DNA of 64,000 nucleotides from Bacillota bacterium (GTDB lineage Bacteria; Bacillota; DTU025). This document shows, in pieces, positions 53,441 through 59,443 of this stretch; within the stretch, counting starts at the first letter, position 1; each line of letters starts with the position of its first letter. Both the position numbers and the translations under genes were made by a program. The DNA is taken from contig JAGVTS010000064.1 of assembly GCA_019136685.1 (NCBI GenBank), forward strand, positions 3,087 through 67,086. The letters run 5' to 3'. The notes under the pieces are model-generated. The model was given only the letters and a program-made list of their open reading frames with translations, did not search any database and was not told the origin of the DNA.

Positions 53441-53537
53441 CGGAATCCATCGCGCCGTTCGTCGCCCTAACCCGACACCTTTCGGAGTGAGGGGGTGCTA
53501 CACTGAATACAATTGCGTAGTGGGGGGGGTGCCGCAG

Positions 53538-54437
53538 GTGATCCGCTTGTATGTCGACTCCCTGCTACTCCTGGCCGGCAGCACGTTCATCCTCGACCTG
53601 GTCACCTTGTGGGCTGTAAGGCAGATAGGCGGCGCGGGCGCGCCCAAAGCTAGATCCGGGCCCAGGCTGGCGGCTGGGGCCGGCTTGTCGACGGCAGTGT
53701 TCGTGGCCATGGCGAGCTTGGCACAGGCGGGGCTAGTCAGCCTGACGTCAGGCGTCTCGATTCTGGCCGCGGCGGCTGGAGCCGGCGCTTCGCTGATCCT
53801 GGCTTTCCCCGGGATGTCGGTGCGAGGCGCGGTTACGGCGTTTGTCTACCGCTCTCTCCTGACCGCGCTGGCCGGAGGCGCGGCGACTGCCGCATACTCC
53901 TTTACCGCGGGGAATCCGGCGGCCTCGTTCATCGCGGCCATCGCAACGGTGGGAGTGGTGGCCGAGGCCGGCTGGGGAGCAGTCCATCGCGGCATTCGCG
54001 ACGGGCTGTTCGTGGTTCCCGTCGACATCGATTTCGGCGCCGACCGTGTTTCGGTTCAGGCACTGATCGACACAGGCAATCGCCTGCGCGACCCGGCTTC
54101 CGGCAATCCCGTGATAATAGTGGAGTACGGCGCGATCGAGTCCGCACTGCCCTGGCAGGTCAGGGCAGCTTTAGCCAAGTCCGATGACGACTTCATGGCT
54201 CGGGCGCGGGCTGTCGCCGGTTCGACCTGGTCGTCGCGGTTCAGAGCCGTTCCGTACTCCTCCGTAGGCAGGGAGAAGGGGATGATGGTAGGCTTCAGGC
54301 CCGACCGAGTACGCGTGGCGGACGGCAGGAGAATGGTCACTACTTCGCGCGCTGTAGTATGCGTTCATACATCCGCACTATGCCCGGGAGGCAACTACCG
54401 GGCGCTGGTCAACCCGGATATCCTGACGGTCGCGTGA
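53538..54437 (+). CDS. spoIIGA: sigma-E processing aspartic peptidase SpoIIGA
   Basis: Five N-terminal TM helices and the catalytic [11 protein letters not shown] (D-T-G). GTG 53538 after a poly-G SD. TGcTACACT extended -10-like element at ~53496-53504. Confidence 0.85.
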
Positions 54438-54460
54438 GTCCACATGGGAGGCTTGCTCAG

Positions 54461-55189
54461 ATGGAGATGATTGAGAGAGCCCTCTGGATAGTACGATTGC
54501 TGCTCATCAAGCTCCTCGGCAGACTGGCTACGGCCGACGACTCAGTCTGTTACGTGGGGAGCCACGAGACGCTTCCGGCTCCGCTTACCCCGGACGAGGA
54601 GGCGTGCCTGATCGGCCGACTTATGGGTGGGGAGGAGGATGTCAGGGCAGAACTGGTGGAGCGCAATCTGAGGTTGGTCGTGTACATCGCCCGCAAGTTT
54701 GAAAGCACCGGAGTGGGCGTGGAGGACCTGGTGTCCATCGGTACCATAGGCCTAATAAAGGCCGTCAATACATTCGATCCGAGCAAGCGGATAAAGCTGG
54801 CCACTTATGCGTCCAGGTGTATTGAAAACGAGATACTGATGCACCTGCGCAAGACCAACAGAATCCGAAGCGAGGTATCATTCGACGAACCGCTCAACGT
54901 TGATTGGGACGGCAATGAACTTCTCCTTTCGGACGTGTACGGGACTGACGACGACCTGATATACCAGGCCATCGAGGAGGAAGTAGATCGTGCCCTGCTC
55001 AGCGAGGCTTTAGCCGCCTTGACCGGCAGGGAGAAGCGCATCATGGAGCTGAGATTCGGCTTCACAGGCGGGTCCGAAAAGACTCAGAAGGAGGTAGCCG
55101 ACCTGCTCGGGATATCGCAATCATACATATCCAGGCTGGAGAAGAGGATCCTGATCAAGCTGAGGCACCAGATAGTCAGGGCTGAGTGA
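54461..55189 (+). CDS. sigE: RNA polymerase sporulation sigma factor SigE (pro-sigma-E)
   Basis: Pro-sequence [22 protein letters not shown], then ...[57 protein letters not shown], near-identical to B. subtilis SigE. Confidence 0.9.
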
Positions 55190-55394
55190 GACGATCACTG
55201 CAGCAGTCGGCGGCACGTGCCCAAGTCGCGCCCGGTCGGGGGAAGATCCACCCGGCCGGGCGCTCCACTATCTTGACAGCCAATGTGTTTGCACTCAATT
55301 CGAATAAGTGCAACAGAATAAACGTCGAGCATCGGAGCAATACTCTTACTGGAATCCCGGCGACGCGAAGTCAAGATTGTGGGGTTGTTCCGAA

Positions 55395-56168
55395 ATGGCG
55401 CTGAACAAAGTTGAGATCTGCGGCGTCAATACCTCGAAGCTTCCGGTGCTCTCGAGCACGAAGATAAGGGAGCTTCTGGAGGCAGTGCGCGACGGCGATG
55501 AGGAAGCGCGTGACAGGTTGATATACAGCAACCTCCGGCTGGTGTTGTCGGTCATTCAGCGCTTCACCAACAGAGGCGAATACGTTGATGACTTATTCCA
55601 GGTGGGCTGTATCGGCCTGATCAAGGCCATCGACAACTTCGACCTGGGGCAGAACGTCAAGTTCTCCACATACGCAGTACCCATGATAATCGGCGAAATC
55701 AGAAGGTACCTGAGGGACAATAACCCGATCAGAGTGTCGCGATCCCTGCGCGACATCGCCTATCGGGCTCTGCAGGTCCGTGACAGGCTCGTCGCTGATA
55801 CCTCTCGAGAGCCAACGGTGACCGAGATCGCCGCCGCCTTGGGCCTCCCGCGCGAGGAGATAGTGTACGCCCTGGACGCCATACAGGAACCGATATCCCT
55901 CTTCGAGCCGATATACCACGACGCGGGCGATCCCATCTACGTAATGGACCAGGTGTCGGATGACAAGAACCTGGACGTCAACTGGCTTGAGGGCATTTCC
56001 ATCAAGGAGGCCATGCTGAGGTTGCCGGCGCGCGAGCGCCTGATACTCCGACTCCGATTCTTTGAGGGTAGGACTCAGATGGAGGTGGCCGACGAGATCG
56101 GGATTTCGCAGGCACAAGTATCTAGACTTGAGAAGGCCGCTCTGAAACAGATGAGGGCCTCGATGTAA
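55395..56168 (+). CDS. sigG: RNA polymerase sporulation sigma factor SigG
   Basis: MALNKVEICGVNTSKLPVL...LRLVLSVIQRFTNRGEYVDDLFQVGCIGLIKAIDNFDL...YAVPMIIGEIRRYLRDNNPIRVSRSLRDIAY..., near-identical to B. subtilis SigG. Confidence 0.9.
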   Translation: MALNKVEICGVNTSKLPVLSSTKIRELLEAVRDGDEEARDRLIYSNLRLVLSVIQRFTNRGEYVDDLFQVGCIGLIKAIDNFDLGQNVKFSTYAVPMIIGEIRRYLRDNNPIRVSRSLRDIAYRALQVRDRLVADTSREPTVTEIAAALGLPREEIVYALDAIQEPISLFEPIYHDAGDPIYVMDQVSDDKNLDVNWLEGISIKEAMLRLPARERLILRLRFFEGRTQMEVADEIGISQAQVSRLEKAALKQMRASM

Positions 56169-56182
56169 AGGAGGGTTACGCC

Positions 56183-56962
56183 ATCAAACACGAACTCGCT
56201 GTCAGGGTAATCACGTGCGCCGCAATACTCGCTCTGTCATTCGTATGCTTCATGGCCGCGACTGCTCGCCCTTCCGGAGCTAGGGCGCCTGAAGAGGCGA
56301 CGCCCGCCTACAACTCGGGGAACCTCATCAGGCTGCACGTCGTTGCGCCCGGCGACGATCCCCAGAGCCAGCGCCTGAAATTCGCCGTGCGCGACAGTGT
56401 GCTTGAGGAGACCGGCAGGCTCCTGCAATCGGCGGACGATGCGAATCAGGCAACCCGGATCCTTCGAGCAAACCTATGGCAGATAGAAGCGGCGGCCGAG
56501 GAAGCGGTGGCCAGGAGCGGCACTTCACATCGAGTGCAAGCCGCTCTGGGCACATTTTCTTTTCCGGGCGTCTCGTACGGAAACGCCTTGCTGCCGGCCG
56601 GAGACTACCTTGCTCTGAAAGTGGCGATTGGGCCCGCGTTGGGCGCCAACTGGTGGTGTGTGCTGTTCCCACCCCTGTGTCCGGTGGACCTGGAGAGGAC
56701 ACGCATCCTGGAGGTCGCTGCGACCGCGGGCGATTCCTCTGCCCCAGGTTGGCAGAGCAATGCCGGCGGGCGGCTTCTCACACTTGAACTGGCGATGCAT
56801 GCCGGACCTCTGGCCGGGGCCGTCGCCCGCAGAGAGGCCACGTTCTACCAGATCGCCACCGGTTCTCCGCGTCTGACTCTGGCCCAACTCACCTGGGAAA
56901 TTCCTGCCTGGGCCTGCCGTCTTCTGAAGTGGCCCCAGCTTCAGCAGGCACGCAGCCGGTAG
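56183..56962 (+). CDS. spoIIR: stage II sporulation protein R (SpoIIR), forespore signal activating SpoIIGA
   Basis: IRLHVVAPGDDPQSQRLKFAVRDSV and GANWWCVLFPPLC match SpoIIR hallmarks (B. subtilis IRLRILANSDSDQDQQLKRHIRDAV ... GANWWCVLFPPLC). First ATG is 56252, but the signal peptide (IKHELAVRVITCAAILALSFVCF) is encoded upstream with no canonical start. ATC 56183 lies 7 nt after AAGGAGGG. Confidence 0.8.
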   Translation: MKHELAVRVITCAAILALSFVCFMAATARPSGARAPEEATPAYNSGNLIRLHVVAPGDDPQSQRLKFAVRDSVLEETGRLLQSADDANQATRILRANLWQIEAAAEEAVARSGTSHRVQAALGTFSFPGVSYGNALLPAGDYLALKVAIGPALGANWWCVLFPPLCPVDLERTRILEVAATAGDSSAPGWQSNAGGRLLTLELAMHAGPLAGAVARREATFYQIATGSPRLTLAQLTWEIPAWACRLLKWPQLQQARSR

Positions 56963-57017
56963 AACCGCCTCCTGCCGAAGCCTCAGCGCTTCGATTGCAC
57001 TCATCTGTTGCCTCCTG

Positions 57018-57025
57018 CATACAAT
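57018..57025 (+). promoter_or_regulatory. sigma-E-like -10 element CATACAAT upstream of ylmC (tentative)
   Basis: Matches the sigma-E -10 consensus CATACA-T. A putative -35 (TCATCTG) sits at suboptimal spacing. Confidence 0.25.
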
Positions 57026-57060
57026 GTGAAGGTTCATCATCTCCTGCAGGAGGTGCCTCA

Positions 57061-57330
57061 ATGATTCTCCGAGCTTCCGAACTCCGTGTCAAAGAAGTCG
57101 TCAGCGTCAACGACGGCAAGCGGCTTGGCTACATATTCGACCTCGAGATCGACATGGATACGGGCAAGGTCATTAGCTTCGTGATTCCCGGAGGCGGCAG
57201 GATCCTGGGTTTTCTGGGGCGCGGAGGTGAACTCGTGATCGACTGGGAGAACATCAAGAAAGTCGGCAAGGACGTGGTTTTGGTAGACGACTCCGAGCTC
57301 GCCGGCGCCGGCGGGTACACACCGGGCTAG
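57061..57330 (+). CDS. ylmC: PRC-barrel sporulation protein YlmC/YmxH family
   Basis: MILRASELRVKEVVSVNDGKRLGYIFDLEIDMDTGKV aligns to B. subtilis YlmC MISISEFQVKEVVNVSNGKKLGSIGDIDINVTTGKI. ATG preceded by GGAGGTG. Confidence 0.85.
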   Translation: MILRASELRVKEVVSVNDGKRLGYIFDLEIDMDTGKVISFVIPGGGRILGFLGRGGELVIDWENIKKVGKDVVLVDDSELAGAGGYTPG

Positions 57331-57436
57331 GCACGGCACGCGCTTGGAAAGTGTCCGTATGCCGCAACCAATGGCTTCACTTGCCTTCGAGGGGGGACAA
57401 TATCCGAGACGCATAACACAATAGCGCCGATTAGCC

Positions 57437-57465
57437 TTGAAAGCCGGGGCGCATGATGCTATACT
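57437..57465 (+). promoter_or_regulatory. strong sigma-A-type promoter TTGAAA-N17-TGcTATACT driving the Hint-domain gene
   Basis: Near-consensus -35, 17-nt spacer, extended -10 (TGn), then GGAGGA SD 8 nt before ATG 57489. Confidence 0.6.
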
Positions 57466-57488
57466 GCGCCTGCTGGAGGAGATGCTTC

Positions 57489-57995
57489 ATGCAATGTTGC
57501 TTGCCGGAGAATACAGCATTACTCATCAAAGACTCCACAGGTGAGGTCAAGCGAGTTACGCTGGACTATTTCGATGCCATGCTTAACGACGAACCGGATG
57601 GTCCCGCCCTCGGCAGCCTGAAGGCGCTCGGCCGCGACGGCTGGGTGGAGTTGACATCGGTCAGTCGCAGGCGCCTATGGGAAGGCGAGGAGCTGTTGTG
57701 CGTCCGCACACGTTCAGGGCAGATCGCGTTGACCGGCGACCACAGGATCGCGGTCAAGCGTGGCATGGAGGATATCGTCGTGCCTGCCAGGGACCTTGGC
57801 ACAGGAGACGCCATGATGGTCTTTGAACAGCCGGCGCTGGGCAAGAGCGCTCGTCCTATCGGGGAAGAGCCGGTATTCAGGCCTTTCGGCGTGCTGTCGG
57901 TGATCAGAACCGTTGGCTACGATGGGCGTATGTATCAAGTTGAAACCGCCGACCACACGCTGGTGGCCAACGACTTCCTTACGCACACGGTGTAG
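57489..57995 (+). CDS. stand-alone Hint (intein-like / Hedgehog-intein) domain protein, 168 aa, essentially no exteins
   Basis: Begins MQ-C-CLPENTALLIKDSTGEVKRVTLDY (intein block A with Cys at the junction), has TGDHRIAV (block B T-x-x-H), ends MYQVETADHTLVANDFLTHTV (blocks F/G, with the terminal HN replaced by HT). Confidence 0.6.
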   Translation: MQCCLPENTALLIKDSTGEVKRVTLDYFDAMLNDEPDGPALGSLKALGRDGWVELTSVSRRRLWEGEELLCVRTRSGQIALTGDHRIAVKRGMEDIVVPARDLGTGDAMMVFEQPALGKSARPIGEEPVFRPFGVLSVIRTVGYDGRMYQVETADHTLVANDFLTHTV

Positions 57996-58094
57996 TCGAA
58001 GTTCGTACGGCTGCTTGCCGTCTGGTCTCTGCGTCATAGTCGCATACCTGACCTTCCGAAATGCGCCAACACCGCCAGGAGCGCCCGGAGGCCC

Positions 58095-58118
58095 GCCGTG
58101 GTATAATGGTGGTCAGGC
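58095..58118 (+). promoter_or_regulatory. extended -10 promoter GCCGTGGTATAATGGTGGTCAGGC upstream of the HlyD-like gene (copy 2 of the repeated motif)
   Basis: Same TGGTATAAT plus downstream GGTCAGGC as at 50154-50177, with a 1-nt insertion. Confidence 0.5.
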
Positions 58119-58171
58119 AATTGTGGCCGTCCGTGCCATGCGTCCAGGAAGAGCGAGAGGCAGAGACAGGG

Positions 58172-59443
58172 ATGTGGACTACTCCGAAGCGAAAACGCCC
58201 GAGGCTTGAGGAGCGTACTGCCGCCGAGCGTGCTCAGAAACGTTTTGCAAAGGCTGCGGCCGTGGTTGTGGTCGCAGTGCTTTCATATTCTCTCTTCGCC
58301 GCCGTTCGCCCCATGATTACGATGAGGTCATCCGGAACAGCCCATGCGTATTCGGGATGGGTCGAGGTATCGTTTCCAGGCGATGCGGTGATCGTTCGCG
58401 ACGAGCGAATTGTCGCCACCCCGATCAGCGGCGTAATCCACTTCGTCGTGGAAAACGGTGAACGGGTTGCAGCCGGCGCAGTTGTGGCTGAGGTGCGCGA
58501 CAGGGCGGCTTCCGAAGCCCCGCAGTCCGGTTCACTTAGGGCTGAGGAGGAGACCGACCGGTTTGTGCAGGAGTGCGCCATGCGCGAGCAGCGCGAGAAG
58601 GAGCGGCTTTCGGCGCTGAGAGTTCAGATTGCCATCAAGGAAACCGAGCTTCGGGCGTACATCGATCGCAAGGACGCCAAGAATGCTAACCGACTCCACG
58701 CGGAACTCGCCGAACTCCGTCAACGCGAAGATCAAGCAGTTGACGCCCTTGCCCGGATCCAGGAGGAGGCGCGAGCCGCAGCAGCAGCGGTGGCCGAAGC
58801 CAAGCGCCGATCCGATATCTCCTCCACTCGCGCGCTTGCCGTGCTGCGGGCCTTCGGCGCATCCCTTGTCAGCACCCACATCGATGGGCTGGAGGGCGTG
58901 TATAGCCCGGCCAACCCCGACCTCCTCGGGGTCTCGCCCGCCGACCACACACCTTATCCGCGCGCCTGCTCCGAGGGAGATTCAGTTGCCGCAGGCGCCG
59001 CGGTCTTTCGGGAAGTGCAGAACCTCCGCACCAACTTGCTGGTCTTCGCGGATGTGCCTGAAGATGCAGTGCCGGGGGCAGGGAGCAGGGTGCGCGTGCG
59101 CTTCCCCAGGCTTGCCCTAGAGGCCGTCCCTGCCACTGTGATAGGCAGCCGACGACGACCGGATATGTCGGCCAATACCTGGTCATTTCACATTGCCCTC
59201 GACCGGTACGCTACGACCCTGACGGACCTGCGCTCGGAGAAGGTCACACTGGTGACCGAGCGCGTATCAGGGATCTTGATTCCTCGCTCAGCCCTGGCGC
59301 GAAAAGACGATGAGTATGGCGTATGGCTGCTCAGGACCAACCGGTTCATCTGGCGCAGCGTGACCGTGCTCGGCATGAACGAGGAGGAGGCGGCAGTCGA
59401 GGGAATACGAGAGGGCGACCGGGTGCTTATCAGGCCGCGGTAG
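58172..59443 (+). CDS. HlyD-family / membrane-fusion-protein-like secretion protein (N-terminal TM, lipoyl-like hairpin, long coiled coil, beta-barrel)
   Basis: TM AAAVVVVAVLSYSLFAAV; lipoyl-like ISGVIHFVVENGERVAAGAVVAEV; ~100-aa coiled coil; C-terminal beta-rich region. ATG 58172 after GAGAGGCAGAGACAGGG. Occupies the slot where ylmD lies in B. subtilis. Confidence 0.5.
   Translation: MWTTPKRKRPRLEERTAAERAQKRFAKAAAVVVVAVLSYSLFAAVRPMITMRSSGTAHAYSGWVEVSFPGDAVIVRDERIVATPISGVIHFVVENGERVAAGAVVAEVRDRAASEAPQSGSLRAEEETDRFVQECAMREQREKERLSALRVQIAIKETELRAYIDRKDAKNANRLHAELAELRQREDQAVDALARIQEEARAAAAAVAEAKRRSDISSTRALAVLRAFGASLVSTHIDGLEGVYSPANPDLLGVSPADHTPYPRACSEGDSVAAGAAVFREVQNLRTNLLVFADVPEDAVPGAGSRVRVRFPRLALEAVPATVIGSRRRPDMSANTWSFHIALDRYATTLTDLRSEKVTLVTERVSGILIPRSALARKDDEYGVWLLRTNRFIWRSVTVLGMNEEEAAVEGIREGDRVLIRPR

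Follow-up and report, generated by a model that had tools for sequence, protein, structure and literature searches.

A probable ATC initiation codon for spoIIR, conserved behind sigG in a clade of Bacillota

The translation start of spoIIR was examined in a stretch of 64,000 nucleotides (nt) from a Bacillota bacterium (contig JAGVTS010000064.1, assembly GCA_019136685.1), and this whole stretch is called the window below. The gene lies in the order ftsA-ftsZ-spoIIGA-sigE-sigG-spoIIR-ylmC, of which sigE-sigG-spoIIR-ylmC recurred in the relatives examined; spoIIR, sigG and the elements located around their starts are on the forward strand. According to the open reading frame (ORF) listing and the translation, the spoIIR frame opens at 56132, directly behind an in-frame TGA stop (56129-56131), and the first ATG, GTG or TTG in it is the ATG at 56252-56254 (Met24 of the gene model given here), with which the public gene call begins (P0001, 236 residues). 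No Shine-Dalgarno (SD) sequence was found before this ATG when the local sequence was inspected. Farther upstream, the SD sequence AAGGAGGG (56168-56175, core GGAGGG at 56170-56175), which shares the last base of the sigG TAA stop, is followed by the 7-nt spacer TTACGCC (56176-56182) and then by ATC (56183-56185), which is proposed as the near-cognate start of spoIIR. The local sequence reads ...CAG ATG AGG GCC TCG ATG TAA-AGGAGGG-TTACGCC-ATC AAA CAC GAA..., and AAGGAGG within the SD sequence can pair with the standard 16S anti-SD over seven contiguous bases. With ATC as the start, the redefined coding sequence spans 56183-56962 and comprises 259 codons and the stop.

Translation of 56129-56965 recovered the peptide ...KEGYAIKHELAVRVITCAAILALSFVCFMAATARPSGARA... 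and reproduced the peptide and the coordinates given in a preliminary description of this DNA, with the SD sequence, the spacer and ATC 56183 in frame with 56252. The in-frame stop had been misplaced in that description: the TAA at 56166-56168 is the stop of sigG and lies in another frame, and the spoIIR frame extends 12 codons farther upstream, to the TGA. The 259-residue SpoIIR matched Spore_II_R (PF09551) over residues 47-170 with 133.6 bits (gathering cut-off 25). The equivalog model TIGR02837 gave 149.5 bits for translation from ATC and 145.4 bits for translation from ATG 56252; the former value is 2.4 bits short of the cut-off (151.9), and the clade member L177 (143.8) and the outgroup L180 (132) were likewise below it. 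The alignment began at residue 15 of the ATC-started protein, nine codons before ATG 56252, and reached profile position 6. When translation was started at ATG 56252, it reached position 25, with the loss of positions 6-24 and 4.1 bits.

The distance from GGAGG to the start is 8 nt for the spoIIR ATC, and the mode for likely gene starts in the window is 7-9 nt. The spoIIR start region was not structured when folded as a single sequence (z = +0.74). The sequence AAGGAGGG was found once in the 64 kb (1.95 expected), which is unsurprising alone, and AGGAGG occurs at 51 sites on both strands, mostly within genes; the spoIIR site is the sole one that combines a near-cognate codon at start-like spacing with a 259-codon ORF and the lack of an upstream canonical start. 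Other combinations of an SD sequence and a near-cognate start in the window were rejected, all of them lying within longer ORFs or antisense to a gene. Support for the ATC start comes from comparison, not from statistics within the window.

Subsequently, the start region was compared among lineages showing 67-90% protein identity to the window, which were collected by genome, metagenome and exact-protein look-ups (the window, L171, L001, L087, L002, L081, L083, L085, L086, L093, L173, L174, L176, and L177). L087 is the same as L001 except for the spacer; the selection statistics were calculated on 13 sequences, with L087 omitted and L001 used once. The pattern GG[A/G]GGG-N7-ATC-A[A/G]A-C was observed in 13/13 lineages. 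The core of the SD sequence was GGAGGG in 12 of the 13 and GGGGGG in one, the spacer was 7 nt long in all of them, and ATC was invariant, both in the 13 lineages and in ten assemblies of the same species. By contrast with its length, the sequence of the spacer differed at six of the seven positions (TTACGCC, TAACACC, TATCACC, AAGCATC, TTACGCT, CTACACC, and AAGCAAC), and the gap between sigG and spoIIR was 14 nt in ten lineages and 36, 45, and 61 nt in L002, L085, and L177, respectively. Because spacer sequence and gap length vary, what is conserved is the unit of SD sequence, spacing and ATC, and not the surrounding DNA. An in-frame ATG, GTG or TTG was absent from the open frame before ATC in 12/13 lineages; the remaining lineage, L002, has an in-frame ATG five codons before ATC, without an SD sequence. 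Downstream of ATC, the first canonical start is codon 7, 9, 18, 24, 51 or 69, depending on the lineage.

The 236-residue protein identical to the ATG-started call of the window is encoded on at least 16 contigs, ten of which were fetched for comparison. These ten independent same-species assemblies (JGI and Logan, from different samples) matched the window letter for letter between ATC 56183 and 56281. They differed from it by 0-3 substitutions, all within sigG upstream of the SD sequence, and no indels were found. The species is also carried by the samples behind Ga0591955-62, DRR520374 and SRR31066034/35.

We also examined more distant relatives. In the outgroup L180 (46% identity), the TGA stop of sigG is followed by AAGGAAGG, 8 nt, and a TTG at the ATC position, and TTG GCG CAC GAA aligns codon for codon with ATC AAA CAC GAA. 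The outgroups P0017 and P0018 (~44% identity) have a GTG or ATG start three codons upstream of the ATC position. Furthermore, 177 spoIIR loci were surveyed for a canonical start before the 15-mer of highest hydrophobicity. Such a start was missing from 25 loci, all of them in this clade, and present in 152, namely seven loci of the clade, with sporadic in-frame GTG, TTG or ATG codons, and loci of other Clostridia. Since the outgroups and the surveyed loci outside the clade have canonical starts, ATC is a derived state, fixed in this one clade of uncultured Bacillota before it diversified.

Protein similarity between the lineages starts at the ATC codon. Other conceivable ways for ribosomes to enter the spoIIR frame are an upstream near-cognate codon, reinitiation after the sigG stop, or a frameshift fusion of sigG and spoIIR. 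In favour of entry of this kind are a sigG stop that abuts the SD sequence, 14 nt before ATC, in 10/13 lineages, a frame that is open for at least 17 codons upstream in most lineages, and the ATG at -5 in L002; even so, we regard it as improbable. The lineages with gaps of 36-61 nt keep only SD-N7-ATC, with nothing else conserved upstream. The in-frame peptides before ATC in these lineages have only E-G in common, which is the SD sequence read as codons, and each of the two in-frame spacer codons before ATC specifies four different amino acids. A conserved sigG-spoIIR fusion was ruled out, as the frame relation varies: spoIIR is at -1 relative to sigG in the window, and in L002 the two genes share a frame in which the TAG of sigG stands 12 codons before ATC. 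Intergenic in-frame stops were also found in L085 and L177. Reinitiation would still use ATC, and would thereby modify an ATC start and not replace it.

The public annotation would be right if translation began at ATG 56252 and gave a 236-residue SpoIIR without the hydrophobic segment, the upstream frame being untranslated. This ATG is the first canonical start, and the homologous codon 24 is ATG, GTG or TTG in 10/13 lineages. In B. subtilis, moreover, SpoIIR without its N-terminal domain keeps some activity (PMC13174948), and the statement in the preliminary description that a protein started at ATG 56252 would presumably be non-functional was too strong for the same reason. The evidence on the 22 codons upstream of codon 24, however, leaves a start at ATG 56252 very improbable. 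For codons 2-23, the mean pairwise proportion of synonymous differences (pS) was 0.389 and that of nonsynonymous differences (pN) 0.098, giving a pN/pS of 0.25; the corresponding ratios were 0.28 for codons 24-46 and 0.20 for the Spore_II_R domain. Variable columns in codons 2-23 numbered 11, 6, and 20 of 22 at the first, second, and third codon position, respectively. Judged from this pattern of substitution, codons 2-23 are under protein-level purifying selection, like the rest of the gene. Besides the missing SD sequence, codon 24 is GCG, TCA or ACG in L002, L085, and L177. Selection for a start at codon 24 was considered and rejected, GTG and TTG being single-step neighbours of ATG. In L177 the first canonical start is codon 69, within the Spore_II_R domain, and a protein started there would lack the conserved NLIRLHVVAPGDD motif.

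The 15 closest database proteins (67-100% identity) have called starts at six positions, none of them at ATC; in 14 of them the membrane-targeting segment is partly or completely missing, and the remaining one begins five codons too far upstream. These public starts are scattered and wrong because standard gene callers cannot see an ATC start, and the ATC assignment would correct a systematic mis-annotation of spoIIR in the clade. As the public starts are misplaced, localisation and signal-peptide predictions for SpoIIR of this clade would be wrong as well. Where close orthologues have been called with scattered starts and share a conserved SD-N7-AUN, the combination is a usable signature for missed near-cognate starts. 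A separate case is P0016 (221 residues), in which the first ~90 residues are unrelated and rich in proline and arginine and the sequence closely matches P0003 beyond that, starting at about residue 91; this looks like the product of a frameshift in a clade member assembled at low coverage, not like a real variant.

Gene decay classically sets in with events such as the loss of a canonical start, and this, with the TIGR02837 score below its cut-off, might point to a pseudogene or to expression at background level. Decay is highly implausible in view of the pN/pS of 0.20-0.28 over the whole gene in 13 lineages at a pS of about 0.4-0.5, the lack of frameshifts and stops, the conserved SD sequence and spacing, and the complete spoIIGA-sigE-sigG-spoIIR-ylmC cluster. 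The window comes from a metagenome-assembled genome, and a GTG at 56215 and an ATG at 56245 lie in another frame, which might speak for a sequencing or assembly error, be it a substitution or an indel, behind which a canonical start or the true frame is hidden. Such an error has a negligible chance of being the explanation, given ten identical assemblies from different samples and pipelines and 12 more lineages sharing the frame and ATC. A sequencing error, which the preliminary description had named as a way of refuting its proposal, was thereby excluded across this region, and use of the out-of-frame GTG or ATG with a frameshift was ruled out, the frame being kept in 13 lineages.

When translated from ATC, SpoIIR begins with a short n-region, (M)KHELAVR, of net charge +1, followed by 20 uncharged residues that end in A-T-A and precede R-P. 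Translation and the hydropathy survey placed this uncharged hydrophobic core at V9-A28 (VITCAAILALSFVCFMAATA, 56207-56266), and the hydrophobic N-terminal domain is present only if translation begins at or near ATC 56183. The tryptic peptide VITCAAILALSFVCFMAATAR would distinguish SpoIIR started upstream from the ATG 56252 form. The preliminary description had called this segment a textbook signal peptide with an A-R-A site. The hydrophobic segment is indeed coded upstream of ATG 56252; the core, however, is anchor-like with its 20 residues, and A-R-A has Pro at +1 and is missing in L002 and L085. The h-region of a cleavable Sec signal peptide is about 7-15 residues long, and signal peptidase I does not cleave with Pro at +1. 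Another A-x-A, A26-T27-A28 followed by R29, lies at the end of the core and is kept in 12/13 lineages (V-T-A in L173). No cleaved form of SpoIIR was detected in B. subtilis, where membrane anchors can take the place of the N-terminal domain and sporulation is markedly impaired, yet not abolished, when this domain is deleted (PMC13174948). The claim that a signal peptide is required because SpoIIR is secreted was accordingly overstated, and a signal-anchor-like hydrophobic domain is the safer description than a cleavable signal peptide.

Compared with the SpoIIR proteins of B. subtilis and C. difficile (PMC13174948, PMC3789822), that of this clade differs in its ATC start and in a C-terminal extension of ~90 residues. 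The extension follows the Spore_II_R domain at residues 171-259 (56693-56959), and its tail, LTLAQLTWEIPAWACR[L/I]LKWPQLQQA, is strongly conserved. SpoIIR forms of 259, 238, and 226 residues differ by an indel of 21-33 residues.

Taken together, these findings suggest that translation of spoIIR very probably starts at ATC 56183; all comparative tests run supported the proposal that ATC behind the SD sequence is the likely start in a frame lacking a canonical one. Several points weigh against this assignment. It rests on comparative sequence evidence. The invariance of the third base of ATC is not significant alone, about 15% of third positions in spoIIR being invariant, and other all-Ile columns in the gene are likewise ATC in 12 or 13 of the 13 lineages. 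L002 may start earlier than ATC, at its in-frame ATG. The efficiency figures obtained for AUC in E. coli may not be transferable to this organism. Finally, the gaps of 36-61 nt in three lineages mean that tight coupling to sigG is not universal. The AAA second codon is not significant alone either, and the lack of an ATG revertant in 13 lineages is weak evidence of selection for a weak start.

Initiation at near-cognate codons is already allowed in translation table 11. On an ATC start, the SD sequence would place the P site of the 30S subunit 7-8 nt downstream, on AUC, and the initiator formylmethionyl-tRNA would read AUC with a third-position mismatch, such that SpoIIR would begin with Met, as in the E. 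coli and Listeria precedents. In E. coli, AUC initiates at 1-2% of AUG, with N-terminal Met confirmed by mass spectrometry (bioRxiv 10.1101/063800). From these precedents, the efficiency of AUC would be only a few percent of that of AUG. The predicted product is the 259-residue SpoIIR, whose first 28 residues would comprise the short positive n-region and the 20-residue hydrophobic segment. Speculatively, the weak start codon might keep SpoIIR output low relative to sigma-G.

Judged by the comparison of lineages, the spoIIR ATC is a further instance of known near-cognate initiation. In Listeria monocytogenes, rnhC has a fixed ATC start that was reported to be experimentally confirmed (PMC13068326). 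Like spoIIR here, rnhC is a Bacillota gene in which ATC is fixed, and its start is among the handful of non-canonical ones fixed in the core genome; rnhC is a different gene with a different function, and its start has experimental support, whereas that of spoIIR is drawn from comparison. The infC gene, which encodes initiation factor IF3, has an AUU start in E. coli and many other bacteria, a codon against which IF3 discriminates at initiation. It resembles spoIIR in having a near-cognate AUN start conserved over a long evolutionary distance. The weak codon of infC, however, forms an autoregulatory loop, its product being IF3, and no such loop is evident for SpoIIR. A third comparison is provided by sigG of B. 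subtilis, whose expression is dampened by a GTG start and a hairpin at the ribosome-binding site (RBS) (PMC5942855). It belongs to the same developmental module as spoIIR; the canonical GTG cuts output only ~1.3-fold, whereas a far stronger effect is expected of the spoIIR ATC, for which no RBS-occluding hairpin was found.

Across this clade, spoIIR, the one gene that sets off sigma-E activation in the mother cell, has as its fixed start a codon whose expected efficiency is a few percent of that of ATG. This points either to a need for only very small amounts of SpoIIR or to a deliberate throttling of its output while spoIIR is carried on the sigG transcript. Going further, the ATC start might be a selected control device and not a tolerated defect: on the shared transcript, an IF3-discriminated codon and the overlap of the SD sequence with the sigG stop would hold SpoIIR synthesis down and make it depend on translation of sigG; we consider this unlikely. 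Such a device, if it existed, would guard against sigma-E being activated too early through spoIIGA-sigE read-through transcripts, and it would govern when, or in what stoichiometry, the forespore signals to the mother cell. No conserved RBS-occluding or regulatory hairpin was found at the junction (alignment fold -7.2 kcal/mol, covariation term -0.09), and a weak CCUC:GAGG pairing of the sigG 3' end with the SD sequence is possible yet unsupported. The Rfam search of 54000-58200 gave no match at E <= 1, and no tRNA genes were found in the window, which had been checked for a special tRNA. In L177, a GC-rich inverted repeat, GCGCGC-GTCATG-GCGCGC (~945-968), stands directly before the SD sequence and may affect RBS access in that lineage.

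The upstream gene sigG (55395-56168) comprises 257 codons and the TAA stop and matched TIGR02850 with 485 bits. Ahead of it, the alignment showed a promoter-like element of forespore type, GAATA-N17-CAATACT (55316-55344), which resembles the sigma-F/sigma-G consensus and may be a promoter of that type. Its core, GAATAAA...GGAGCAATACT, was invariant in 13/13 aligned loci including two outgroups (44-46% SpoIIR identity). [quoted passage not shown] Because the gap is 14 nt and contains no promoter- or terminator-like element, sigG and spoIIR probably share a transcript driven from the conserved element upstream of sigG. This arrangement, with spoIIR 14 nt behind sigG and without a promoter-like motif of its own, is a further difference from B. 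subtilis and C. difficile.

A strong GC-rich hairpin was observed at 55228-55263, ~40 nt past the sigE stop. The minimum free energy of the region was -47.1 kcal/mol (z = -2.72), and none of 200 shuffled sequences was as stable. Both arms appeared to be conserved across the lineages, and no U-tract follows. This hairpin may act as a terminator or attenuator on transcripts running from spoIIGA-sigE into sigG-spoIIR.

With its ATG at 54359, the longest sigE ORF shares 79 nt (54359-54437) with the end of spoIIGA (53487-54437). The SigE models aligned only from residue 42-47 and public sigE calls are 242-246 residues long; therefore, the true sigE start is probably downstream of 54359. Behind ylmC, an ORF of 168 residues (57489-57995) is kept in the clade members and in both outgroups whose contigs reach that far. 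It had no Pfam match above threshold and a weak one to Intein_splicing (PF14890, E = 0.027, 14.7 bits). By eye, it appeared to be Hint-like, with an N-terminal CLPENTALLI, an LTGDHRI motif, and a C-terminal VANDFLTHTV.

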